Below, one piece after another: positions 3,561-16,457 of a stretch of 64,000 nucleotides of DNA (position 1 is its first letter; every line of letters begins with the position of its first letter). Under the pieces are notes generated by a model. It ran no database searches and had not been told where the DNA came from. It worked only from the letters and a program-made list of their open reading frames with translations. Origin of the DNA: Escherichia coli (GTDB lineage Bacteria; Pseudomonadota; Gammaproteobacteria; Enterobacterales; Enterobacteriaceae). The DNA is taken from NCBI RefSeq assembly GCF_030013595.1, contig NZ_CP122768.1; one strand, 5' to 3'. Made by a program: the position numbers and the translations under genes.

Positions 3561-4415
3561 TCAGGGTGCAAGCTGTCTGACCCTTTCCCGATATTCTCCC
3601 GGAGTACAACCAAACTCGCGGACAAACGCCTTGTGAAAAGATGATTCACTGGCATAGCCTACTGACTCAGCGATCACCACAACAGGGAGCGTTTCCCGGG
3701 AAAACATCTGGGCCGCTATTTGTAGACGCAACTTTGTTAATACAGCTAGCGGCGTGGTTCCGGAAACATCACGGAAAAGCTGGGCAAAACTTGCCCGGGA
3801 CATGTGGGCGATGCTGGCCAGCGATTCGACGGTCCAGGCATGTCCTGGCATTTCCAGCATTTGCTGTATTACCGCACCAAGACGTGGATGCAGAAGCAAA
3901 CTGAGAATGTTTTTCTCTGTATTAACCTGTGCAATCCACTCACGCACCGCGAGGGTAAAGAATGTAGCGCAGATCTGGCTACACAGAGCATCCACTCCCG
4001 GCATTGCCGATCTGGATTCCTGTTGTAAAAACGGGATCGCCTCCCTCAGCCAGTTATATTCCACGCTATGGTTCACTGGTGCTACAAACAGCGTTTCCGG
4101 CAAAGACGTTAAAAAATAACGCGCCGAATGTTGCAGCCGAAGAGTGCCACAGACAATACAGGTCGATTCATTATCGACATGACTCAGGCGATGAGCTGAA
4201 TTTTGTGGTAGCAGGACCACATTTCCCGGGCGTAATGTAAAAATCTCTCCCGTCGGCATTTCCAGCTTCGCCGCTCCTTGCGTTAACGCATGCCAACGAA
4301 TAACCGACAATTCCCCGGCACCATGTGGAAGTTGCCAGTCACTTCCTAACACGCAATTCTTATCGATCGTTCCTTGTGGAGCGTTAAGCATCAACAAACG
4401 GCTAAGAGCATCCAT
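3561..4415 (-). CDS. rclR: AraC-family reactive-chlorine regulator RclR (284 aa)
   Basis: C-terminal AraC HTH; divergent from rclA; length matches RclR. Confidence 0.8.
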   Translation of the reverse strand: MDALSRLLMLNAPQGTIDKNCVLGSDWQLPHGAGELSVIRWHALTQGAAKLEMPTGEIFTLRPGNVVLLPQNSAHRLSHVDNESTCIVCGTLRLQHSARYFLTSLPETLFVAPVNHSVEYNWLREAIPFLQQESRSAMPGVDALCSQICATFFTLAVREWIAQVNTEKNILSLLLHPRLGAVIQQMLEMPGHAWTVESLASIAHMSRASFAQLFRDVSGTTPLAVLTKLRLQIAAQMFSRETLPVVVIAESVGYASESSFHKAFVREFGCTPGEYRERVRQLAP

Positions 4416-4641
4416 ATCAGACTCCTGAGTAGTTTTTTAATTACAAACACCAACAATCTTAGTCAATAATTAATCTAATACCATCAAATAGTTAATCATG
4501 ATTTTTGTTTTGTGATTCTGATTAAGAAAAAGAAAATACCAGACGATAAGACAAAATATCAAGCGTTGTGAAGAAATGTTATGTGCTCTTTTGCGTCTAT
4601 AGTCATGATGTCAAATGAACGCGTTTCGACAGGAAATCATC

Positions 4642-5862
4642 ATGAATAAATATCAGGCAGTGATTATTGGTTTTGGCAAGGCTGGAAAAACATTAGCCGT
4701 CACGCTGGCAAAAGCAGGTTGGCGTGTGGCTCTCATCGAACAATCAAATGCAATGTATGGCGGGACCTGTATTAATATCGGCTGTATCCCAACCAAAACA
4801 TTGGTTCATGACGCACAGCAGCACACAGATTTTGTCCGTGCCATACAGCGTAAAAATGAAGTGGTTAATTTTTTACGTAATAAGAATTTTCATAATCTTG
4901 CGGATATGCCCAATATCGACGTGATCGACGGCCAGGCGGAGTTTATCAATAATCATAGCCTGCGTGTTCATCGGCCTGAGGGAAATCTGGAGATTCATGG
5001 CGAGAAAATTTTTATTAATACCGGTGCACAAACCGTGGTTCCGCCAATTCCTGGAATTACCACCACGCCTGGTGTATATGACAGCACCGGATTACTTAAT
5101 CTAAAAGAATTGCCTGGGCATTTAGGTATTTTGGGCGGCGGATATATTGGCGTTGAGTTCGCCTCTATGTTCGCTAATTTTGGCAGCAAGGTAACCATTT
5201 TAGAAGCAGCTTCGCTGTTTTTGCCTCGGGAAGATCGGGATATTGCTGATAATATCGCGACGATTTTACGCGATCAGGGCGTCGATATTATCCTCAATGC
5301 CCATGTGGAGCGAATCAGTCACCATGAAAATCAAGTGCAAGTGCATAGCGAGCACGCCCAACTGGCGGTGGATGCACTGTTAATAGCTTCCGGTCGTCAA
5401 CCAGCTACCGCTTCGTTACATCCAGAAAATGCCGGTATCGCAGTAAACGAGCGCGGGGCAATTGTCGTTGACAAGCGATTACATACCACCGCAGACAATA
5501 TTTGGGCGATGGGAGATGTTACCGGCGGGCTGCAATTTACTTACATATCACTAGATGATTACCGCATTGTACGTGATGAGTTACTGGGTGAAGGCAAACG
5601 TAGTACTGATGATCGGAAAAATGTGCCTTATTCCGTATTTATGACACCGCCCCTGTCCAGGGTTGGTATGACAGAAGAACAAGCCAGAGAGAGTGGTGCT
5701 GATATTCAGGTGGTGACATTGCCTGTAGCTGCAATTCCGCGCGCCAGAGTGATGAACGATACCCGTGGGGTATTAAAAGCGATTGTTGATAATAAAACCC
5801 AACGTATATTAGGGGCATCACTGCTGTGTGTTGACACGAGAGTATTCAAAACACGCCAATAA
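4642..5862 (+). pseudogene. rclA: rclA (pyridine nucleotide-disulfide oxidoreductase), 5' portion; reading frame leaves native sequence after ...LLCVD (about 5835) and ends in element-derived codons TRVFKTRQ*
   Basis: GFGKAG Rossmann motif, CINIGCIPTK redox-active disulfide; K-12 RclA is 441 aa, here first 398 aa then insertion. Confidence 0.8.
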
Positions 5863-5903: not shown

Positions 5904-5929
5904 CGTATAGCTTAACGTGTAGCTAAAAA
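5904..5929. repeat. Sub-terminal repeat cgtatagctTaacgtgtagctaaaaa (left copy), probable integrase-binding/att-associated site
   Basis: Near-identical copy at 16432-16457 (1 mismatch). Confidence 0.55.
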
Positions 5930-6479
5930 TGTTTGCTGCAAAAGTATACAATTTTAACCGTTATGACTCCCTGTTATCCGTTATCAAGCTGGTGGATGAT
6001 CATGGATAACCCGTTATGGGAATCCCCATATCGGCATCAGGCCCATGCCATAACAAAAACCCCATATTCGTGGGTTTTCTGTGTTGTGGCTATTCTGCCG
6101 TTGCCGTGCTGGTGGATATTTCCGGTATGTGGCTCACCATATCGGCATCACGCCCACCAGCGCGACGCATTTTTTTAATTTCGCGGGTGTAAAAATTTGA
6201 CGGGGCGGGCGGTCCTATAAGCAATGGGGGGTAGGGATTTCGATCCCCCCTCCTGAATGCAATTTTCCGTATGTGGCTGTGCGGCAATCATACTCGTCAC
6301 ATGTTTTTGACAATAAAAGGCCCGACCGTGAGACTCACAAACAAAAAAGTTACGGAGAAACAGGGGATCGGGCTCGGTTGCCGCTAAATCTATTCAATTA
6401 AAAGAAGATGTCAATAGGGAAAACGAAAAAAAACAATGCTGATATTGTCATAATTTGAACAAAACCACTATATGTAGTT

Positions 6480-6710
6480 TTAGTTCATGAGGTTAGTCGC
6501 TACCAGATGCGTCAATAGTTTTTTGCTATTAATAATCCCTCTTTTTCCATCGGGAGCTTTGCACTTGTCACTACCTGGTAACTCCTGGTGGCGTTCCTGT
6601 TGCAGCACAACGGAAACAGGCGCTGAACACCTGTTAATTTTGCTTGCAGGTTGTTTGATTTCGGCAATGCTGCGGATCATCTCCAGCATATCGGCTTCGG
6701 TGATGGTCAT
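6480..6710 (-). CDS. Hypothetical small protein (76 aa) in satellite
   Basis: ORF only; lies just beyond the cos-like repeat block. Confidence 0.25.
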   Translation of the reverse strand: MTITEADMLEMIRSIAEIKQPASKINRCSAPVSVVLQQERHQELPGSDKCKAPDGKRGIINSKKLLTHLVATNLMN

Positions 6711-6718
6711 GATTTACA

Positions 6719-6995
6719 CCTTAGGAAATCTTAGGGGCTGGTTGACACTTTCCGGCTTAAGACCTTAACAAATCTTAACATCGCAGGTTGACACACTTGA
6801 CACTTTTTCGCGAAAAACCTTATCAAACCTTAGCATTTCTAAGCATGGCAACTTGACACTTTTCGCGATTTTTTCGGCTTTTTGACGTGGTAAATCTGGC
6901 GCAAAGCCAGTAACGGCGGGGTTTACAGCGAGGTTGACACTTTTTCGCGTTCAGAGTGTAAAGTGTCAACCTGGCAAGCTGCTCAACTTGACACT
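6719..6995. repeat. Cos/pac-like repeat block: at least 6 direct copies of TTGACAC(TTTT) (6742, 6788, 6797, 6853, 6934, 6988) plus one inverted copy (6963) interleaved with CTTAnnAAAnCTTA repeats
   Basis: Repeats counted directly; adjacent to TerS-like gene. Confidence 0.5.
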
Positions 6996-7003
6996 TTTTG
7001 AGG

Positions 7004-7531
7004 TCATTGATGGCCTGATTTTTCCCACTCAGCCAGGGCGTTTAGTCCGGCTTCACTCCAGTTATCCAGCTCATCGGGACAATCACCTGCAACATAGCAG
7101 AGCTCACAACGCAGCATACGAATTGCCAGCCTGGCATTTTCCCGAAAATCATACTGCTCAAAGTAATATTGCCCAGCATAATCCTCAAGGCAGATAGCAC
7201 CATCATCAAGAAATTGCACTTCACAGCATAGTTCCCCGGCTGCATCCTGTACACGCTGCTGTATGTCATTGTCCGTTACTGGTGCAGGGATTTTACCGTC
7301 TCTGGCCTTAACTGCTTTCCAGAACTCGCCCCACGTCATTTCCAGCGTTCTCTCTGGCCACATTTCAGAAACGGTATCTTTTCCCTGTGCTGGTGGGCTG
7401 TTCCGCTGCTCTGTCGCTTCCACATCGATTTTTTTACCGGACATGACCACTTCGCCTTTCTCGATCCAGTCGTAAACTGTCTGGCGGCTTACGCCTTTGT
7501 GTTTGGCATATTCTGCCTTGCTCATAAACAT
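7004..7531 (-). CDS. Terminase small subunit-like protein (Nu1-type N-terminal HTH); candidate packaging-redirection protein (Rpp-like)
   Basis: N-terminus KAEYAKHKGVSRQTVYDWIEKG resembles lambda Nu1 HTH; no large terminase or capsid gene in element. Confidence 0.55.
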   Translation of the reverse strand: MFMSKAEYAKHKGVSRQTVYDWIEKGEVVMSGKKIDVEATEQRNSPPAQGKDTVSEMWPERTLEMTWGEFWKAVKARDGKIPAPVTDNDIQQRVQDAAGELCCEVQFLDDGAICLEDYAGQYYFEQYDFRENARLAIRMLRCELCYVAGDCPDELDNWSEAGLNALAEWEKSGHQ

Positions 7532-7701
7532 GACACTTCCCCTCAGACTGTATTAATGCGCCGGAAAGCGCGTGTATTTAAATCATCCCAGGAACCGTTG
7601 AGCACCAATTAGTTGCGCGAAGTAATCGGCACCAGCGTTCCGAACAATTTCCAACTTAACGTTCTGATCATTGTTTCCTGCTGCAGGGACAATCCCACGA
7701 T

Positions 7702-8355
7702 TCATAGCCAGCGCCCGGATATTTCTTCCAGTTTTTCCAGAGCTGGCTTGCAGGCCGCATCAATAACTTCACGGACCATTCCGGCGAGCTGTTCTTCTTC
7801 TGTCGGCGTTGTTACTTCCACACCTGATGGTTTCCCGCCCTTATCCCATACGCCCAACGGTACGAGCGCAACGTGATCGATAAGAAATGGCGTACCCTCA
7901 ATGAAAAAATTGTCCTCGCCCATTACATCAGGAACTTCTGCCCCACCGGACGCACCACAAAACACAACCGACGGGCTGGTGGATACCTCCCCCCGTGCTT
8001 TCTGGATGTAATCGATGATTTCCTGCCCGTAAATCCGGCATACGCCCCACACCTCGTCACCGCGAATATACGGCAACATGACGGTGCCAATAATGCGCGA
8101 CCGTTCGCCCACGTCTTCAAGGGTTTTGCTTTCGGGATGGTCGATAATGACGGGTACTCCGGCGCAACGTTCCAGGAACTGCGGATTGAGATAAGTTTGC
8201 GGTGAACGCCAGACAAATTCTTTTTCTTCGGCGCGATAGGCCATTCCGGTTCCTGTGATACGCAGGTTAATCAGCCACATGTTGGAAAACTGATAAGGCG
8301 ACGGTAGCTGACCGTCCCGAATCTGCTTTGCCGCCTCAATTTCTGTTAAAAGCAT
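7702..8355 (-). CDS. Hypothetical protein (217 aa), satellite morphogenesis/packaging region
   Basis: ORF with coding-like composition; no motif recognised. Confidence 0.45.
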   Translation of the reverse strand: MLLTEIEAAKQIRDGQLPSPYQFSNMWLINLRITGTGMAYRAEEKEFVWRSPQTYLNPQFLERCAGVPVIIDHPESKTLEDVGERSRIIGTVMLPYIRGDEVWGVCRIYGQEIIDYIQKARGEVSTSPSVVFCGASGGAEVPDVMGEDNFFIEGTPFLIDHVALVPLGVWDKGGKPSGVEVTTPTEEEQLAGMVREVIDAACKPALEKLEEISGRWL

Positions 8356-8419
8356 AATGTCCCCCGGTTATAAGCAATAAGCCCCACCAAATCCGGCAGG
8401 GCTGAAATCAGCACGTTTT

Positions 8420-9013
8420 TCATGCCCCCGCGAGGCTTGCAACGTTAATTTTAACCAGGCGACGGGGAGGGATTTTGAAAGCACTAAGCCAGTTATTCGG
8501 ATCCCCCTGATATTCAGTAATCCGCCGTCCGGCTTCATCCATTCTTACGGTTTTACGCAAATAGCCCGGCGTATTTTCCACAGCCCACTGAACACTGTCT
8601 TTTGCAGCCTGGTAAATCTGATCTTCCAGCACCGCCAGCGTTGCAGAATCTGAAACGGAACGAATATCCACATCACTGAATTTTTTAGCCAGCTTCTGTG
8701 CACCAATTAATGCACGCTTGCGGTAATCCATCGACTTTTCACCAGCAAACGGGGCTGGAGCGCGACGGCCCATATTGCTGTATGCGGAATCCGCTTTAGC
8801 CTGGGCTTCTGCCAGTGAGGATTCATCTTCGACTGACGCGACGATGTTTTTATTCGCGTCATCCTCGTCCGCTTTTGTGAAATCCTGTGCGGGGATCGCA
8901 TTCAGAATTTCGATAATCTCCTGCGGAGTGCTGCCCTGCGACTCTGACAGAGCGTTAACCACCTCCATCAGTTTTAATCGCAAATCTTCTTTGCTTGCTG
9001 GCATTTTTACCAC
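8420..9013 (-). CDS. Hypothetical protein (197 aa), acidic and Ala/Glu-rich, scaffold-like
   Basis: ORF; composition resembles phage scaffolding proteins (inference only). Confidence 0.4.
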   Translation of the reverse strand: MVKMPASKEDLRLKLMEVVNALSESQGSTPQEIIEILNAIPAQDFTKADEDDANKNIVASVEDESSLAEAQAKADSAYSNMGRRAPAPFAGEKSMDYRKRALIGAQKLAKKFSDVDIRSVSDSATLAVLEDQIYQAAKDSVQWAVENTPGYLRKTVRMDEAGRRITEYQGDPNNWLSAFKIPPRRLVKINVASLAGA

Positions 9014-9043
9014 CTCTCTTTTTTCACCAAAAAATCACGACCA

Positions 9044-9241
9044 TCAGGCCGGACGTTCTACGGGATAAAGCGCCCGCTGCATTAAACGCCGGGCGACCTC
9101 ATGAATGCTCGGAGCAATCCCCAGCGGAGAATTGCGGCGTTCCTCGTCCTGGATGCGCTGTAATGCTTCAATCTGATCACGAGCGAGTAAAACGGGTTTC
9201 ACGCTGGCTTTTCTCATAGTCATATCTCCTGAACAAAACAA
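9044..9241 (-). CDS. Hypothetical small protein (59-65 aa)
   Basis: ORF between PerC-like gene and the 197-aa gene. Confidence 0.3.
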   Translation of the reverse strand: MFCSGDMTMRKASVKPVLLARDQIEALQRIQDEERRNSPLGIAPSIHEVARRLMQRALYPVERPA

Positions 9242-9418
9242 TGATTATGATTGCACAAACTGAAATAACGATCTACATCATTGCAATTTATGAAACAATA
9301 ACGCATGATGATCGCGTTCTTCCCATTGACTTCAATCACCTGAAAAACAAAGCCCGCAACACTTCTGGCTGCGGGTTTTTTACTGGCACAAAAAAGCCGG
9401 GAAAAATCCCGGCCTCCG

Positions 9419-9706
9419 TCACTGACTGCAATTTTTCGATCCAGGGTATTTCCTGAATGCCTTACCATTGGGCTGATGTAATCCCATCCCGGCATGTGCC
9501 CGGCTGATGGTTTCGCGCATTTCCCCGAAATTATCCTGCCTTGCTGGTGGGCGTGCTGCCTTGCGGATACATTCCGCGCGACGTTTTGCCGCCTGTTCCC
9601 GTGCCTTGTCATCATTCGCCAGCATGATGACCTCAGCCCACCGCGCCGCCGCTCTCCGGTACAGACCACGCGCTTCCAGTGCTTCCGCTTTGCTGTCGTG
9701 AATCAT
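9419..9706 (-). CDS. PerC-family-like transcriptional activator (95 aa)
   Basis: Small basic protein with N-terminus MIHDSKAEALEARGLYRRAAARWAEV typical of prophage PerC homologs (from memory). Confidence 0.45.
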   Translation of the reverse strand: MIHDSKAEALEARGLYRRAAARWAEVIMLANDDKAREQAAKRRAECIRKAARPPARQDNFGEMRETISRAHAGMGLHQPNGKAFRKYPGSKNCSQ

Positions 9707-10245
9707 GCGCCTGTTTTCTCCTTTGCTGCCCGGCGCTGACGTTTGCGCTTCTCATTCAGCGCCACCAGCCGCGTTTCTGCGTCCTGTTGTTCCTGTGGTG
9801 TCACCTCGCCGCACGGCTGGCCTTTCAGGTCGTAGCGTACCCCACCAGCCATTAAGGCGCGGTAATAGCGCGGACACTGCGCATAAGATGCCAGCGTCGC
9901 ACGCAATGCCCCTGGACCGAATGCCAGCCCCCTGACGGCGAGATCCTGCATCAGGTCGTCGAATATCCCCACCTTAAGCGGCTTCGGTGCTTCCCGGCTG
10001 AATAATTCAGGCCACAACTCAGTGAGGCGGTTAACGCGCCTGCGGTTTTTGCGCTGGCGTTTGGTCATATGCCGCCACGGTGTCGCCCCTGTGGGCTTCT
10101 GCTGCGCTTTCTGGTTACCGGGCATCACTTTATGCGCCGATGTGGTTTTATCCTGCTCCTGCGCCGCCTGCGTCGTTTTCTGCGGCGTGCCGTAAATGCC
10201 TTTCGGTTTTCTGTTAATGGTCAGCTTAGTCATGCTTTGCCCCAT
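9703..10245 (-). CDS. ProQ/FinO-domain RNA-binding protein (180 aa)
   Basis: PKPLKVGIFDDL ... YAQCPRYYRAL ... RYDLKGQPCGEVT matches ProQ/FinO N-terminal domain pattern; K/R-rich tail. Confidence 0.6.
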   Translation of the reverse strand: MGQSMTKLTINRKPKGIYGTPQKTTQAAQEQDKTTSAHKVMPGNQKAQQKPTGATPWRHMTKRQRKNRRRVNRLTELWPELFSREAPKPLKVGIFDDLMQDLAVRGLAFGPGALRATLASYAQCPRYYRALMAGGVRYDLKGQPCGEVTPQEQQDAETRLVALNEKRKRQRRAAKEKTGA

Positions 10246-10392
10246 CGTTTTTACTGGTTGCTACGTTGCCCAACGGCACTGACACAACATTCTGTTTTCA
10301 TTTTTAACATTCCTGATTTTTTAATTCCTCACCTGCTGCACAGTGAAAATTTATGAAGTTAATAACAATATGATTTTAAATGTATTTTTAAG

Positions 10393-10713
10393 TACTCACT
10401 TTTTAATCCTTATATATACGCAAAAGTGAGGTAAATAGTTAAGTTTTAGTTAATATCTTGCATGGTGTGTTTTTTAACCTACCTGTTATTTTTATTACCT
10501 CATTTCTATTAACTCACCATTCCTCACTTTTGTTCCTCACTTTTTATTATTCTTGTTCTGCTCCTCAGTCGTTTTCTTTATTGTTGTAATCTGTTGTTTT
10601 GCAATGTGTTTTTAACTCCTCACTTTTTGACCTATATACAGGTGAGAAAGTGAGGAGTGGCGTTGATTTTTTGTTAAATTACCCGCCATCCTCACTTTTG
10701 CTCCTCACTTTTT
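10393..10713. repeat. Iteron-type replication origin: at least 7 copies of CCTCACTTTT (direct and inverted) in AT-rich DNA immediately 3' of rep
   Basis: Copies at about 10395, 10421 (inv), 10522, 10534, 10617, 10645 (inv), 10691, 10703. Confidence 0.6.
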
Positions 10714-12127
10714 ACAGTGGGCGCACATAATCACCGTCAATAGCGATTACGCCGTCGCTTTCCAGCTTGTACAGCCAGCGCCGGAAGTTTTTCATTTCAT
10801 ACCCCAGCTTTTTCATATCATCGCGGAGAAGGGCGATAGTGCACGCCTCCCCGTGTGCTGTTCGCGTTCTGATGCACTGCCATAGCGCAGCGTGATTTTC
10901 CGTCTTGTTCCCGGCCTCCTCGATGCGTTCCAGTTCAACAGGTGGGCGCGGCTTATCCACAACCACCAGCGACGTGATTAACTCCCCGTCAGTGTCGGTA
11001 AAAAGCTCCACCACGCGTAAATCATATGCAGCCTCTTTCAGTTCCTCCGCGTCCTTCATTTTGGTGCAGGAGATAACCAGGGCTTCACTGTCCGCACCTT
11101 CACGGCGAATACGGTATTCAGCGTCCAGAGATGCACGAAATGCACTGGAACCACGCGCCCCTTTTGTTTCATCCTTGCCGGAATGGTGAACCACCAGTAC
11201 CGTGGCCCCTGTGCGTCGTTTCAGTTCGTCACATCCACGGATAAACGCCCCCATATCCCGCGCGTCATTTTCATCATTACCGCCAAAGCAACGCGCCAGC
11301 GTATCCAGAATAATCATGCGTACCGGTTTACCCGTTTCCCGTTCAACCTGACGGGAAGCGATGACCATTTCATCAACATCAAGCGGGACCGCCGGAAAAA
11401 TCGGGCGGTTTACCAGGTACAGATTTTTCACCCGTTCATCATTAACGATTTCCCATGCTTTGATACGACGAGGAACACCGATCCCGCCCTCACCAACGAC
11501 ATACATAACCGCACCATGTACAACCCTGCGACCTCCCCAGTGGCGACCAGTGGCAACATGACACGCCCAGGAACACGCGAGGAACGATTTATAGGAACCG
11601 CTCGCGCCGTATGTGCTGCACAACGAATTAGCCGGAATCACGCCCTTAACGACATAATCAAGCTGTGTGTCGTATCCTGCAGATCCAATACTCATTGGTA
11701 GCGTGGTTTTTCGCTGGCTGTATTGCTCGTCAGTAAGTATTTCCCCGCGCTCTGCCTGTTCGCGGATCCGTTGCAGGTAGTCGTGCCAGTTCTCCAGCTT
11801 CTGGCTGTGCATTCCCTCAGGGTAATAATTCGCATCCCGTACACCTGCCGCCGCCAGTTTTTGCCCGATGGCATTAATATTTGACGGCTTGATGTGGCCT
11901 GCCTTGTACAGCCGGACACAATAGCGACCATCGTCGATAATTTTCAGGTCTGCCAGTTCGTCAAGCTGGCTGTCTCCCAGCCATACAGGCGGAACATTGT
12001 CGCCAGCAAGTCGCCCGTCCTGTTCCTGCCATTGTTTCGCGTGCGCCCAGGCATCACTACCCGCAAAAATAATGACTTCGGTCATTTTGTCGTGTGGCTG
12101 TTTTTTTAAGTTCGGTGCCAGTTTCAT
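10712..12127 (-). CDS. RepA-like replicative helicase / AAA_25-type ATPase (471 aa)
   Basis: Walker A GASGSYKS, Walker B MIILDTL, VVHHSGK; adjacent iterons. Confidence 0.7.
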   Translation of the reverse strand: MKLAPNLKKQPHDKMTEVIIFAGSDAWAHAKQWQEQDGRLAGDNVPPVWLGDSQLDELADLKIIDDGRYCVRLYKAGHIKPSNINAIGQKLAAAGVRDANYYPEGMHSQKLENWHDYLQRIREQAERGEILTDEQYSQRKTTLPMSIGSAGYDTQLDYVVKGVIPANSLCSTYGASGSYKSFLACSWACHVATGRHWGGRRVVHGAVMYVVGEGGIGVPRRIKAWEIVNDERVKNLYLVNRPIFPAVPLDVDEMVIASRQVERETGKPVRMIILDTLARCFGGNDENDARDMGAFIRGCDELKRRTGATVLVVHHSGKDETKGARGSSAFRASLDAEYRIRREGADSEALVISCTKMKDAEELKEAAYDLRVVELFTDTDGELITSLVVVDKPRPPVELERIEEAGNKTENHAALWQCIRTRTAHGEACTIALLRDDMKKLGYEMKNFRRWLYKLESDGVIAIDGDYVRPL

Positions 12128-12423
12128 TTTGTGCCCCTGAATGCGTTAATCATGTTTTTCATTTTCTGAATATTTGCCCGTGCCTTTGCGTTGCTGGTGG
12201 GCTGTTTGCGTGGTGTGGCCTGTATCAGTGAAAAATCACGCCGGAACTGATAAACAGGCATCACGCAGTCGTAGCTGTACCCATCACGGCGGTAAGTAAC
12301 GCACCGTCCGGCAATACTTTTAATCGTTACCGTGCCGCCGTAGTTATCCCGGAAAATATCGCCGGGGCGGATTTCAGGCCGAGGGAGACCACTGGCAGTA
12401 AAGCCAGAATTTTTCTTTTTCAT
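12124..12423 (-). CDS. Hypothetical protein (99 aa), translationally coupled to rep (4-bp overlap)
   Basis: ORF; operon packing. Confidence 0.45.
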   Translation of the reverse strand: MKKKNSGFTASGLPRPEIRPGDIFRDNYGGTVTIKSIAGRCVTYRRDGYSYDCVMPVYQFRRDFSLIQATPRKQPTSNAKARANIQKMKNMINAFRGTK

Positions 12424-12427
12424 GGTT

Positions 12428-12628
12428 TTATTTTCCTGTCAGCAGTTCCGGTTTTATTTCCGCACGAATACAGAGTTCAGAAAAAAATTCAGGAGAACCA
12501 ACAATCTCATTACTTTTCAGTCGGCATTGTGATTTCACTTTCCCTTTATCCAGGTAAACCAGTATGCGTCCGGTGAAATCATCTGGCACACTCAGGGTAA
12601 TTGTCATTGTTGCTTGCTGATTATCCAT
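12428..12628 (-). CDS. Hypothetical protein (66 aa) with one FTG-x-LV repeat unit
   Basis: Shares about 50-aa repeat with upstream 121-aa protein. Confidence 0.4.
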   Translation of the reverse strand: MDNQQATMTITLSVPDDFTGRILVYLDKGKVKSQCRLKSNEIVGSPEFFSELCIRAEIKPELLTGK

Positions 12629-12986
12629 GATTCACCCCCTGAATAACCTGATAACCGCAACTGGTCAGCAATTCGATAAATTCCGGCAGTGTTCCGAAAC
12701 AGCAATCATCTCGCAGCCGTTCTCGGGATACTTCAACGCCGTTTTCGTAGTGACTCACCATGCGTCCGGTAAAATGCAGATCATCATCGTGATGGCTCGT
12801 TAACGGCTTAATCAGTCGCGCACGTTCTGCCAGCTCCAGCAATGCTTCAACGCTTCCGGCAATTGCACCATCCGGCAGGTGATAATTACTTGCCACGCGT
12901 CCATTCTCCACGTTAACCAGTAGCTGCCCGGTGAATTTCTCATCAAACTGAATGCTGTTAAGGTCAGAAATTGACAGGTTAATCAT
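12621..12986 (-). CDS. Hypothetical protein (121 aa) with two internal FTG-x-LV repeat units
   Basis: Internal duplication visible in translation; 8-bp overlaps with neighbours. Confidence 0.45.
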   Translation of the reverse strand: MINLSISDLNSIQFDEKFTGQLLVNVENGRVASNYHLPDGAIAGSVEALLELAERARLIKPLTSHHDDDLHFTGRMVSHYENGVEVSRERLRDDCCFGTLPEFIELLTSCGYQVIQGVNHG

Positions 12987-13344
12987 GGCGTACCTCCTGG
13001 CGAATACGGGCAGCGAATACCATCACGCAGCCATCAGGAGATTGCTGGCGTGCTTCCTGTTCGCTGGTGGCCACGATGTGAATCACGCGCGGTTGTGCGG
13101 TGCTCAGGGCGATAAAACGCCAGATAAAATTGTTTTCGCATTTCTGAATAAACAGCGTGTTTTCTTCGCGCCCTTTCCATGTTGCCGAGATATAGCCCAT
13201 GCCATTGAGCATCTCGCAGGCATCAACCAGCGTATCAGCGGCTACGTGTACAGTGTTTTTACCGTCAGCTATGCAATCACGGTGCACCGCCAGGAAGGTG
13301 TATATAAATTTAGGGTGAGTTTGGGTATGCTGTGTTCCAGCCAT
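12979..13344 (-). CDS. Hypothetical protein (121 aa); first gene of alpA-distal operon
   Basis: ATG at 13344 with AGGT RBS; the 478-aa ORF-track extension to 14415 is judged spurious. Confidence 0.45.
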   Translation of the reverse strand: MAGTQHTQTHPKFIYTFLAVHRDCIADGKNTVHVAADTLVDACEMLNGMGYISATWKGREENTLFIQKCENNFIWRFIALSTAQPRVIHIVATSEQEARQQSPDGCVMVFAARIRQEVRHD

Positions 13345-13545
13345 AATCGTTACCTCATTTAACGGTTTGGTTAGAAGCCCCGTTACTGCTCCAACAGTGC
13401 GGGGCTTCGTCGTTTCAATTGCTGAATTGCATGTATCAGCCCTTGTGGTATTCAGATTACATTTTGGTGAATACCATTTCAAGTCTTTTTTGGTATTCAC
13501 TTTTGTATTACACTGCATCCCGTTATTAATCGGAGGTGCAAACAT

Positions 13546-13849
13546 GTCCACGAGTTCTGTTAACAATAAGTCACAGCAACTGAATGCCAGATTTCCACAT
13601 GAAGTAGTGAGTGGCATTGAGGCATCCCTACAGCCAGGGGAAACTAAAGCGAATTTTATAGTTACGGCTGTACGCGGTGAGATCGCCCGCCGCCAGGCAG
13701 AAGGAAGCGGAGAAAACCCCCTGGTTTCTTCGCTCGATGCGCTGGCGCAGGTGGAAAAAATCGGAGTCAAAGCTGCCGAGGAGATCGGGCAGCTCGTCAC
13801 CGTCGCACGTGAAGAACTCCAGCGCCGCAAGGCCAAAGAATCAGAATAA
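13546..13849 (+). CDS. Putative ribbon-helix-helix-like DNA-binding protein (101 aa), divergent from the rep operon
   Basis: GGAGG RBS; inverted repeats TGGTATTCA / TGAATACCA at about 13445-13500 upstream. Confidence 0.4.
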
Positions 13850-13906
13850 TAACTATCATCGCCGTGGTGTGAGGAACTCCGGCGCATTGCTTTACAGGTA
13901 CACAGA

Positions 13907-14107
13907 ATGACCAACAAAGAATCAACCAAAACACCATCACCAACCCGGAAGAGACGTCGCAAAAATATGACGCACGAGCATGAATCAGACAGATTCGCGC
14001 CGTGTGCGTTTGTCCTTGAGACGTTCCTTAAAGAGTACAGGCGCACAAAATTAGGGCCACATACCTGGAAAACATCGCGACATAGCGATATTAAAGAGCA
14101 GGAATAG
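13907..14107 (+). CDS. Hypothetical small basic protein (66 aa)
   Basis: ORF downstream of RHH-like gene; R/K-rich N-terminus. Confidence 0.3.
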   Translation: MTNKESTKTPSPTRKRRRKNMTHEHESDRFAPCAFVLETFLKEYRRTKLGPHTWKTSRHSDIKEQE

Positions 14108-14240
14108 CCCACCAGCAAGTCAGCATATTCACCATAATGACCCTCGGTTAAACCTAGAGTCATTGGTGCAAACCTGACACATTGCCCACCAGCCAGCAAA
14201 TCGCTATGATATTTGGGCTTATGTTTAGTGTTTTCCCATT

Positions 14241-14268
14241 GGCGACCGCCCCCGGTCGCCTTTGTTTT
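14241..14268 (+). terminator. Rho-independent terminator (GGCGACCG-cccc-CGGTCGCC + T-run)
   Basis: Perfect 8-bp stem followed by TTTGTTTTG. Confidence 0.55.
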
Positions 14269-14321
14269 GCCCGTTATCCGGCAATTGTGGCGCTTCGCCA
14301 CACGGTTGATATAATTCCCCT

Positions 14322-14392
14322 GCACTGATCCATTTTTTTCGCAGCAGGTTAATTGTTCGCAAGGGCGCTCCGGCAACGGGGCGCTTTTTGTT
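14322..14392 (+). ncRNA. Candidate ~70-nt small RNA: extended -10 (TGaTATAAT, 14307-14315) to terminator hairpin 14361-14389 with GNRA-like loop and T-run
   Basis: Promoter-like element and terminator ~70 nt apart in a 310-bp non-coding gap, convergent with alpA 3' end. Confidence 0.3.
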
Positions 14393-14419
14393 ATGTTCAT
14401 CGCGTTACGCCTCACACCA

Positions 14420-14626
14420 TTACGCAGCCGTTCCGCGCGCTTCTTCCTCGCGCTCTTTCAGCCAGGCCAGCACTTCATCTTCATACCAGCCAACACGACG
14501 CAGACCGATTTTGAAGCCTTTCGGGAATTTTCCGGCGTTGATCATGTCCTGTAGCGAACTGTCTGCCTTGATGCGCAGAATATTTTTTACTTCCTGACGG
14601 GTAAGTATTTTTCTGATTGTTTCCAC
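14420..14626 (-). CDS. alpA: AlpA-family transcriptional regulator (68 aa)
   Basis: Typical AlpA/Vis-like size and HTH (LRIKADSSLQDMINAGKFPKGFKIG) next to integrase. Confidence 0.75.
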   Translation of the reverse strand: METIRKILTRQEVKNILRIKADSSLQDMINAGKFPKGFKIGLRRVGWYEDEVLAWLKEREEEARGTAA

Positions 14627-14690
14627 TATGTTTTACCTCGTTAATCCGGCGTATTCCGGTGATAAATACGGTAAAACAGGGCAGGGCGGG

Positions 14691-14732
14691 AAAAACAGTA
14701 CCCACCGTTTTAAAACGGTACCCACTGTTTTT
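14691..14732. promoter_or_regulatory. Tandem operator-like sites AAAAC(A/G)GTACCCAC(C/T)GTTTT x2 upstream of alpA
   Basis: Two 20-bp near-identical units in the alpA promoter region. Confidence 0.4.
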
Positions 14733-14795
14733 ATCTCATTGATTACGCTTTTCTTTCTGCAAAAAAATAGCGACCGCAAAGGGCCGCTATTGTGA

Positions 14796-15026
14796 TTACC
14801 GTTTCCACTTCTTAGGTCGCCCACCGCATTTAAGGCTGGTGGGCCTCAGCACCTTGTCGATGCTTTCAGCCAGATTTTTCGATGCACCACGCGAGCGCAA
14901 AAAACTGACTACCTCGTGTTTTGTGGGGGCTGTTGATTTGTCTTCCGGATCGTATGTTGACCAGAATTCACGATTTGCCATTAACGCCAGTTGCAGCCCT
15001 TCGCCGTAGGCGGTGGTATTTTGCAT
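14796..15026 (-). CDS. Hypothetical small protein (76 aa) between int and alpA
   Basis: ORF only. Confidence 0.25.
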   Translation of the reverse strand: MQNTTAYGEGLQLALMANREFWSTYDPEDKSTAPTKHEVVSFLRSRGASKNLAESIDKVLRPTSLKCGGRPKKWKR

Positions 15027-15124
15027 AATAGAATTTTCATATACTCCGGCCTTGTCGTTAAATTTGTGGCAATTATACGATGGTTTGGCATGGTTTGCAT
15101 CGCTTTTACTGGCTTTTTGTACAG

Positions 15125-16366
15125 CTACACGGCACGGATACCCCTTTTACCGCTGGCTATGGTCACTCCGGTAGCTGCAGCCTCCACAAATTCACCCCAC
15201 CAGCGCATAAGCACCACGCGCTTTTCCAGGTAGTTACTTCGGTTATATGCCCGCCTTACCTCGTTCGTGTCCACGTGTGCGAGTGCGGCCTCGATTACGT
15301 CCGGTTCGAATCCTTCCTCGTTCGCTGCTGTGCTGAATATGGCGCGTAATCCGTGAGACACCAGCACACCAGCGTAACCCATCCGGCGTAATGCAGCGTT
15401 AGCGGTCTGGCTGCTCATTGGCAGCATCGGATTTTTAAGGCTGGGAAAAACGTGTTCCCTGTGTGCGCTGATTGGCTTCATGGTTTCCAGTACAGCCATA
15501 GCCTGACCGCAAAGGGGGATCACATGGTCACGGCGCATCTTCATGCGTCCGGCTGGAATCGTCCAGGTTTCGGCATCGAGATCTATTTCTTCCCAGCGTG
15601 CGGCGGCTGCTTCGGCTGGGCGTGCTACGGTCAGCAGTTGCCACTCAATCAGCAATCTGGTTTGCCGTTCTATGCTGGCGACCGATAAATCGTGCATTAG
15701 CTGCGGTAGCTGTTCCGGTCGGATGGTTGGCATGTGCTTTTTGGTGGGTGAGGGGAATGCCTTGCGGACGTTCGCGGCGGTGTTGATGTCAATCAGCCCA
15801 CTGTTGGCGGCAAAATCCATCACTTCATTGATGCGCTGCAAAACGCGTTTCAGAGTTTCCAGGTTGCCGCGTGCTTTAATGGGGGTGAGTATCTCAACAA
15901 AGCGGCGAGCGGTGAGGGTATCTATTGGCGTGTTTCCGATGTACGGGAATACGTATTTTTCCAGGGATCGCCAGATATCCTTAATCGTGTTGTAAGCCAG
16001 ATTCTGGCCTTTTTTCATCTCGTACCAGTCCGAGGCAACTTTTTCGAACGTGTTGCCCTTTTTCCGGCTCTCTGCTTCACGTTTCCGGCGTTCATGGTCC
16101 TGTGGGTCAGTTCCCTTTGCTATTAGTGACCTGTATTCATTCCGTCGCTCTCTGGCATCAGACAGGGAAACATCATTCAGCGATCCAAGGCTGATAATAG
16201 TCCGTTTTTTATCTGCCGGGCGGTAGTACGTAAAACGCCATATTTTTGATCCGGAGGGCTTCACCAGAAGAAATAATCCTCCGCCATCCTGCAGGGTGTA
16301 TTCCTTTTCCCCTGGTCGTGCGTTTTTGATCTCCGTAATGGTTAGTGGGGTGGTTTTTCGTGCCAT
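15125..16366 (-). CDS. Tyrosine site-specific integrase (P4-type, 413 aa)
   Basis: N-terminal arm-binding-like region and C-terminal catalytic domain (HGLRAIFST ... R..Y); adjacent repeat cluster. Confidence 0.85.
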   Translation of the reverse strand: MARKTTPLTITEIKNARPGEKEYTLQDGGGLFLLVKPSGSKIWRFTYYRPADKKRTIISLGSLNDVSLSDARERRNEYRSLIAKGTDPQDHERRKREAESRKKGNTFEKVASDWYEMKKGQNLAYNTIKDIWRSLEKYVFPYIGNTPIDTLTARRFVEILTPIKARGNLETLKRVLQRINEVMDFAANSGLIDINTAANVRKAFPSPTKKHMPTIRPEQLPQLMHDLSVASIERQTRLLIEWQLLTVARPAEAAAARWEEIDLDAETWTIPAGRMKMRRDHVIPLCGQAMAVLETMKPISAHREHVFPSLKNPMLPMSSQTANAALRRMGYAGVLVSHGLRAIFSTAANEEGFEPDVIEAALAHVDTNEVRRAYNRSNYLEKRVVLMRWWGEFVEAAATGVTIASGKRGIRAV

Positions 16367-16380
16367 GTTTTTTTACCCAT

Positions 16381-16457
16381 CGGTAGCTATATGCCTGGTC
16401 GTAGCTATACGGCTTTAGCTACACGCTGGACCGTATAGCTAAACGTGTAGCTAAAAA
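16381..16457. repeat. Integrase-proximal repeat cluster (GTAGCTATAC / CGTATAGCTA / CGTGTAGCTA inverted and direct units) including right copy of sub-terminal repeat (16432-16457)
   Basis: Matches left copy at 5904-5929. Confidence 0.55.

Follow-up and report, generated by a model that had tools for sequence, protein, structure and literature searches.

A satellite island of 10.5 kb, situated within a 64,000-nucleotide stretch of Escherichia coli DNA (NCBI RefSeq assembly GCF_030013595.1, contig NZ_CP122768.1; the whole stretch is referred to here as the window), was found to carry two neighbouring genes whose products are, by sequence comparison, each homologous to one half of the prohead protease-scaffold protein found in Rac-SA53-like myophages. 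In those phages both halves are encoded by one gene, whilst in the satellite version the gene is split in two, the order of its parts is reversed (scaffold-like, then protease) and the charged spacer between them is nearly gone. We propose, with the chances about evenly balanced, that this satellite-adapted split protease-scaffold pair takes over the capsid assembly of a helper phage, probably so as to yield small capsids. The island and the three genes of interest, with positions in the window, are as follows.

5904..16457, minus strand: satellite island of 10.5 kb, with a 26-nt direct repeat at both ends
9044..9217, minus strand: basic protein of 57 amino acids (aa), isoelectric point (pI) 10.7 (65 aa from TTG 9241), the first gene of the trio in every case
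8420..9004, minus strand: scaffold-like protein of 194 aa (197 aa from GTG 9013), identified by a C-terminal match to phrog_6216
7702..8355, minus strand: homologue of DUF2213/assemblin-fold prohead serine proteases, 217 aa, identified by Pfam, PHROG and fold

The trio had originally been predicted as open reading frames (ORFs) lying between a PerC-like gene and a gene resembling those for the terminase small subunit (TerS), and all three were confirmed on the minus strand, at 7702-8355 (217 aa), 8420-9013 (197 aa) and 9044-9241 (65 aa). Ribosome-binding sites and family alignments refined the probable starts to ATG 8355, ATG 9004 and ATG 9217, giving products of 217, 194 and 57 aa, respectively. 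The start at 9004 is favoured by a Shine-Dalgarno sequence (AGAGAGGTGG) 7 nt upstream and by the use of the same start in almost every homologue of the 194-aa protein in the databases, and that at 9217 by an AGGAG sequence 8 nt upstream and by a start shared among 23/23 aligned members of the 57-aa family. Homologues with 56-98% identity were retrieved from Escherichia, Salmonella, Citrobacter, Enterobacter, Pantoea and Klebsiella aerogenes; the full trio, of 57, 194 and 223 aa, was found in satellites of Escherichia, Klebsiella and Pantoea, and single proteins also in Salmonella, Citrobacter and Enterobacter. Gene order within the trio was unchanged in the Klebsiella and Pantoea loci examined, and the block formed by PerC and the trio was constant across islands, with the gene downstream of it varying. 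The protease gene and the 194-aa gene are under purifying selection, as the median pairwise ratios of nonsynonymous to synonymous substitution (dN/dS) among seven E. coli alleles were 0.09 and 0.17, respectively, and the 57-aa gene was almost invariant. In E. coli RMDEC465 (2216-2799 of the locus examined) the 194-aa gene has been annotated as a pair of overlapping coding sequences, reflecting either a frameshift in a decaying copy or a sequencing error.

It had been stated that none of the three proteins carries a nameable motif, which proved incorrect for two of them, given the matches to DUF2213 and phrog_6216 and the assemblin fold. The 217-aa protein consists of a protease domain (approximately residues 1-185) followed by a C-terminal helix (186-216). 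Its residues 39-168 matched PF09979 (DUF2213/Pa193_gp24) with 28.2 bits relative to a cut-off of 22 (E 2.2e-6), and its homologues bear the label DUF2213 in RefSeq. The protein also aligned with positions 115-315, a part of the family profile, of phrog_6216 (E 2e-79), and weakly with PHROG families named ‘head maturation protease’. An AlphaFold model generated from 42 homologues (predicted local distance difference test, pLDDT, of 85) displayed the fold common to assemblin-type prohead serine proteases, including T4 gp21 and the herpesvirus proteases. His73, the STSP motif (Ser125-Thr-Ser127-Pro), Glu153 and Asp160-His161 were invariant or nearly so; H73, S127 and H161, which were (nearly) invariant across 20-42 homologues, are all retained in the window copy, and the candidate catalytic residues align with those of Pseudomonas phage Pa193 gp24. 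Searches of PDB sequences with the single proteins and with profiles returned nothing relevant. It was concluded that the 217-aa protein is an assemblin-fold prohead protease homologue that has kept its candidate catalytic residues, and it may be active as a protease.

In Pa193 gp24, itself a DUF2213 protein, one segment was observed attached to the capsid's inner surface, and it was read as a scaffold (PMC11456595). The satellite protein resembles gp24 in its DUF2213 N-terminal domain, with His, Ser and His in the same alignment columns, and the gp24 gene lies between head-morphogenesis genes and those for the decoration and major capsid proteins. In contrast, the two share only approximately 16% identity and align over the protease part only, the C-terminal part of gp24 is not recognisably the same domain as that described below, and gp24 is a phage protein.

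The tail of the satellite protease matched the helix that follows the protease domain in Rac-SA53-type proteins (hhalign 95%, E 2.5e-8), indicating that a helper-type helix has been kept. The window copy terminates in GRWL, whilst its relatives, of 223 aa, terminate in GRLAQLEKEG, such that the window allele is approximately 6-8 residues shorter. An insertion of approximately 165 bp (about 7535-7700), common to the window allele, cq9 and U90, stands in place of the last 10 or so codons of the protease gene, which it sets apart from the gene that follows; in other islands these two genes lie 7 nt apart.

The 194-aa protein can be divided into an N-terminal helical module (approximately residues 1-45), a short acidic linker (46-60; DEDDANKNIVASVED) and a C-terminal domain (approximately 60-190). 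Its initial description as acidic and coiled-coil-like holds with respect to its pI of 5.2, its N-terminal helices and its acidic linker, but does not extend to the C-terminal region, which is a well-predicted alpha+beta domain (AlphaFold2 pLDDT above 90 over residues 60-190). The 197-aa ORF matched positions 405-544, again a part of the family profile, of phrog_6216 (E 8e-47), a family of phage proteins composed of NUDIX, DUF2213, linker and C-terminal domains, and the C-terminal part of the 194-aa protein was 64% identical to the C-terminus of the 430-aa protein of Rac-SA53. An exhaustive HMMER scan returned 1378 representative clusters containing the domain; the matches listed were all at the extreme C-terminus of proteins ranging from 70 to 830 residues. 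The N-terminal partners of the domain in the longer proteins are NUDIX and DUF2213 domains, and it also occurs without a protease in front. Structure prediction had been put forward as a check on the trio; it placed the 217-aa protein in the assemblin protease fold but gave no convincing PDB or BFVD match for the C-terminal domain of the 194-aa protein, which is likewise without a Pfam family or a PDB sequence relative. The helices of the first 45 or so residues, which are followed by some 15 acidic residues, were found only in satellite proteins, and hhalign gave the N-terminal module a probability of 12% over 14 columns when compared with the helper post-protease helix. The NCBI family name, NUDIX hydrolase, was also considered for the 194-aa protein, but domain scans revealed no NUDIX match in the window protein. 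The extreme C-terminus is the usual location of the capsid-binding region in scaffolds, including P22 gp8, the 80alpha scaffolding protein and herpesvirus UL26/UL26.5, and, by analogy with the SaPI1 and SaPIpT1028 scaffolds described below, the 194-aa protein may act as a short competing scaffold that binds the capsid protein.

Both satellite proteins matched a single gene in 14 phages, in which the protease part comes first and the C-terminal domain last. Identities were 54-64% to the proteins of Rac-SA53 and Actinobacillus Apl-pPE4, and 35-41% to those of the other twelve phages. The phage gene order is terS, terL, portal, head morphogenesis, the fusion gene, a 205-aa gene, major capsid and, further along, sheath. 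Pa193 shares this arrangement. In Rac-SA53 the 430-aa protein comprises the protease (residues 1-185), a helix (186-228), a 72-residue spacer rich in Lys, Glu and Ala, and the C-terminal domain (301-430), which, judging by its position and by analogy, would dock with the major capsid protein in the interior of the procapsid. The helper-type spacer of approximately 70-100 residues contrasts with the acidic linker of some 15 residues in the satellite 194-aa protein. Across satellite genera the same features recur: scaffold before protease, a new module at the N-terminus and a short linker.

The phage fusion genes contain a conserved in-frame Met codon just after the protease domain (Rac-SA53, 7535-7575 of the locus; the Pantoea helper described below; and Chronis), with a Shine-Dalgarno-like sequence 7-8 nt upstream, which reads AGGTGA in the first two and GAAGAGG in Chronis. 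This conservation suggests internal initiation in the helper gene, and therefore a nested, scaffold-only product. Nested protease and scaffold pairs are known from herpesvirus UL26/UL26.5, lambda C/Nu3 and Mu I/Z, where the scaffold C-terminus binds the capsid protein. As in those pairs, an assemblin-fold protease is linked to a scaffold in the helper gene, where the internal start is a putative one; unlike them, the satellite divides the two functions between genes that do not overlap, that stand in the opposite order and from which the spacer is almost gone.

In many phage versions (Chronis, 3599-5212 of the locus, and many metagenomic homologues) a NUDIX hydrolase domain is fused ahead of the prohead protease, and a NUDIX enzyme would therefore reach the procapsid. 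Several of these families carry misleading database names: the 194-aa family is called ‘NUDIX hydrolase’, the protease family ‘TolA’ and the helper portal (DUF1073) ‘anti-CBASS protein Acb1 family’.

Rac-SA53-like myophages are the presumptive helpers of the island. In Pantoea agglomerans the island is directly followed by the last 111 codons of terL, encoding a product 80% identical to Rac-SA53 TerL, and then by portal, head-morphogenesis, 438-aa fusion protein, capsid and sheath genes, such that a Rac-SA53-like prophage has the Pantoea satellite embedded in its terL gene (12045-12449 of the locus). Identities between the two satellite proteins and the fusion protein of this prophage are 55% and 58%. 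The arrangement resembles that of the helper-embedded phage-inducible chromosomal islands (HE-PICIs) of lambdoid helpers, though the Pantoea helper is of the myophage type. Amongst complete E. coli genomes, the satellite block was present in 38/5426 and the Rac-SA53-type head module in 89/5426 (1.6%). Both elements occurred in at least 16 of approximately 30 named E. coli carriers, relative to an expected overlap of 0.6 (hypergeometric P of about 1e-19, with clonal relatedness ignored), and this count is a lower bound, since about 75 of the 89 head-module matches were listed. E. coli cq9 (NZ_CP031546) and U90 are among the strains with both. In cq9 (record positions 2,326,000-2,374,000) the satellite lies near smrA, and a Rac-site prophage with a Rac-SA53-type head module has its integrase only about 8 kb away; the distance from satellite to head module was some 30-40 kb in cq9, STEC719 and ETEC1732. 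The remainder of the 64-kb window contained no helper prophage. Satellite alleles were 58-79% identical to one another, 53-66% identical to the Rac-SA53 group and less so to all other phage groups, a pattern that fits an old capture from the Rac-SA53 lineage rather than repeated recent captures.

Under the proposed takeover of capsid assembly, the short satellite scaffold would compete with the helper protein for capsid protein during late growth of the helper. This competition would redirect assembly to procapsids that fit the 10.5-kb island, probably smaller ones, which would exclude the helper genome. The satellite's own protease, targeted via its retained helix, would then remove the scaffold and mature the shells. 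Because the helper protease is delivered as part of the scaffold, displacement of the fusion protein would also mean loss of the only helper protease, which would provide the rationale for a private satellite protease. The TerS-like gene and an adjoining motif array may then direct packaging of satellite DNA. A redirection of capsid size would fit the difference between the 10.5-kb island and helper genomes of 44-52 kb. With regard to the original suggestion, made from position alone, that the trio serves helper exploitation, homology together with prophage embedding and co-occurrence supports a role in capsid assembly for two of the genes, for which size redirection would be a putative outcome, whilst no function was assigned to the 57-aa gene.

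Several observations weigh against this takeover. EcCICFT073, the best-studied phage-inducible chromosomal island (PICI) in E. coli, keeps full-size capsids (PMC6092414), and capsid genes carried on PICIs can be dispensable for transfer (PMC10111431). The window protease allele is without the end of its helix, and the model offers no route by which a free protease would enter the procapsid. The co-occurrence statistics are inflated by related pig enterotoxigenic E. coli (ETEC) isolates, and approximately 13 named carriers had no helper-type head module among the matches listed (about 75 of 89). The case as a whole is assembled from sequence, structural models and genome association.

The strongest alternative, which we nevertheless consider unlikely, is that the pair serves interference only: the truncated scaffold would cap the capsid protein in a dominant-negative manner and the untethered protease would cleave helper head proteins early, so that helper yield falls, as host defence or to competitive advantage, with no redirection of size. 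The homology and the helper association apply equally to such a function, known E. coli PICIs interfere without a change in capsid size, and release from the scaffold tether deprives the protease of the signal that normally confines it. On the other hand, the protease retains the helper-type helix and all of the conserved residues, suggesting that it still works within the assembly pathway, and spread of the satellite would still require functional capsids. Moreover, in known systems interference and size redirection are one mechanism (PMC5644958).

Passive capture of a ‘Late zone’ fragment that serves as a redundant, spare protease and scaffold, as proposed for other capsid genes of Gram-negative PICIs, ranks behind interference and is likewise improbable. 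PICIs have been reported to capture helper late genes, some of them dispensable (PMC10111431), and both the split 194-aa gene of RMDEC465 and the clipped end of the window protease would be in keeping with a spare copy. Such a copy would nonetheless be expected to have the fused form and spacer of the helper, and the dN/dS values of 0.09-0.17 are at odds with redundancy. Escherichia, Pantoea and Klebsiella satellites instead share the rearranged, linker-deleted architecture, with 58-79% identity to one another, which implies long retention. The Pantoea satellite, furthermore, interrupts terL and not the protease gene, and therefore does not act as a backup for a disrupted gene.

It is very improbable that the genes are the decaying leftovers of a degraded prophage and that the island is not a satellite. 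The original prediction had held that clear homology to phage structural proteins would point to such a remnant, and homology to phage morphogenetic genes is indeed clear. The ORFs are, however, intact, under purifying selection and rearranged in a satellite-specific manner, and they form a conserved block amid varying flanks. The same compact block is found at different loci in many genomes, and in the window the integrase, AlpA, helicase, iterons, PerC, TerS-like gene and attachment (att) repeats are all contained within 10.5 kb, with no portal, capsid or tail genes or fragments in the island. That the database names are correct, making the 194-aa protein a NUDIX hydrolase and the 217-aa protein a TolA-like envelope protein with metabolic or envelope roles, is barely credible: many family members do bear these names in NCBI and UniRef, but neither protein has a NUDIX domain, which is confined to the N-terminus of certain long phage homologues, the name having been transferred from phage proteins with such a domain ahead of DUF2213, and ‘TolA’ stems from the Lys/Glu/Ala-rich spacer of the phage fusion, absent from the satellite proteins.

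To our knowledge, capsid hijacking by satellites is understood in detail for only a few systems, namely P4 Sid, CpmAB, Ccm and Rcm of the pathogenicity islands of Staphylococcus aureus (SaPIs), and TcaP of the phage-inducible chromosomal island-like elements (PLEs); for enterobacterial PICIs, the redirection of packaging by Rpp is the only worked-out mechanism of which we are aware. P4 Sid and PLE TcaP are external scaffolds and SaPIbov5 Ccm is a capsid-protein homologue, and all of them reshape helper capsids. The pair described here would share with these the theme of satellite-encoded capsid reshaping, but the principles differ, there is no homology, and Sid, TcaP and Ccm involve no protease. 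The closest parallels come from SaPI1, with CpmB, and SaPIpT1028, with Rcm. Each of these satellite scaffolds has its capsid-binding end in common with the helper scaffold, competes against the latter and gives rise to small capsids (PMC5644958, PMC12409344). As with CpmB (encoded with CpmA) and Rcm, the 194-aa protein joins the putative capsid-binding end of a helper scaffold to a different, shorter remainder, and its gene lies in a late/packaging operon beside a TerS gene. There is, however, no sequence relationship, and the shared part is a 130-residue alpha+beta domain with 54-64% identity, as opposed to the short helix or hairpin of the SaPI proteins. In addition, the helper scaffold here is fused to a protease and the satellite has a protease gene, none being reported for SaPIs in PMC5644958 and PMC12409344.

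The island also resembles capsid-forming and ‘Late zone’ PICIs, enterobacterial islands in which integrase, AlpA and primase genes are found with phage head genes (10.1101/2022.09.08.507074, PMC10111431, PMC10085698). A serine protease is occasionally present in PICIs (PMC10085698), but a DUF2213 protease with a split scaffold-domain module is not mentioned in these three reports (10.1101/2022.09.08.507074, PMC10111431, PMC10085698), and the satellite literature searched contained no description of this module, or of a satellite prohead protease beside a scaffold mimic. A stronger version of the proposal, which we consider less probable than not, is that this is the first satellite with its own prohead protease and the first capsid-remodelling module of an E. 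coli-type PICI, in which the helper gene was un-nested and the spacer cut from approximately 100 to 15 residues, such that the length of the scaffold sets a smaller shell and the private protease is placed beyond helper control.

If the takeover of capsid assembly is correct, the helper-derived split protease-scaffold module would represent a new solution to hijacking and a candidate size determinant in E. coli, and a whole satellite lineage would be tied to one defined kind of helper, namely Rac-SA53-like myophages, of which some carry LT-II enterotoxin genes. On the stronger version, the length of the scaffold spacer would moreover offer a ruler of capsid size that can be tested directly in a genetically tractable E. 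coli system. The widespread misannotation as ‘NUDIX hydrolase’ and ‘TolA’ would be corrected, and a very widespread phage domain without a Pfam family, present in the 1378 representative clusters, would find its place as the scaffold end of protease-scaffold proteins.

The 57-aa family was restricted to these islands, being found only in Enterobacteriaceae, mostly at 57-58 aa and on contigs that also bear the other two genes of the trio. No match to the 57-aa protein was obtained in Pfam (even at E 10), PHROG, NCBIfam or PADLOC, and no phage homologue was retrieved; for the three proteins together, searches of NCBIfam, PADLOC (anti-phage defence) and plasmids returned nothing. A ribbon-helix-helix regulator was considered, but there was no Pfam match at E 10 and hhalign gave 0.9% in a comparison with four ribbon-helix-helix sequences, which is a weak test. 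As a conserved third member of the block, the protein may be a small regulator or an adaptor.

The direct repeats that bound the island (5904-5929 and 16432-16457) are 26 nt in length and identical at 25/26 positions. The island appears to have inserted into the 3' end of a gene (4615-5862) for an rclA-like pyridine-nucleotide-disulphide oxidoreductase, whose dimerisation domain is shortened. On the minus strand, the gene order is integrase, AlpA, DUF4222, RepA-type helicase, iteron-like repeats, ProQ/FinO, PerC, the trio, the helix-turn-helix (HTH)/TerS-like gene and an array of six motifs, with Pfam matches to integrase, AlpA, AAA_25, DUF4222, ProQ and PerC. A layout of integrase, AlpA, replication and late genes is that of Gram-negative PICIs (PMC6092414, PMC10111431). 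The features by which these are recognised were all found, namely an integrase, AlpA, a replication protein with an adjacent origin, unidirectional genes, a size of approximately 10-20 kb, att repeats and an absence of virion structural genes, and placement of the island in this class draws on its gene content and its genomic association with Rac-SA53-like prophages. No portal, major capsid, head-tail connector or tail genes or fragments were present among the ORFs of 5904-16457, which sets the island apart from the capsid-forming PICIs; lacking capsid, portal and connector genes, it would therefore be unable to form a capsid of its own. Scans for promoters and terminators performed no better than on shuffled sequence. 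Two further features flank the trio on its downstream side.

7004..7531, minus strand: HTH/TerS-like protein of 175 aa, matching HTH_17 (E 5e-4) and, at its N-terminus only, phrog_57 (terminase small subunit; E 5e-7)
6742..6996, five copies on the minus strand and one on the plus strand: AAGTGTCAA motif array, six copies in 255 bp, directly downstream of the TerS-like gene

The TerS-like gene is a variable module 3' of the trio, other islands carrying different genes there, and the Klebsiella and Pantoea relatives encode an Sf6-type TerS at this position. The 175-aa protein was also considered as a counterpart of Rpp (redirecting phage packaging) of EcCICFT073, but a phmmer search against all PDB chains, which should include Rpp, returned nothing relevant at E <= 1. 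The motif AAGTGTCAA is expected 0.59 times across the whole 64 kb, relative to the six copies found in 255 bp, and the array is a candidate packaging-recognition (pac/cosB-like) site or operator. Upstream of the trio, four to five iteron-like repeats with the core TCCTCACTTTT (10387-10714), located between the genes for the RepA-type helicase and ProQ/FinO, are the likely replication origin of the island. Within the early region, at 12428-12986, two neighbouring small genes (66 and 121 aa) both matched phrog_340 and shared a common 37-nt repeat family, and this pair is a tandem duplication.

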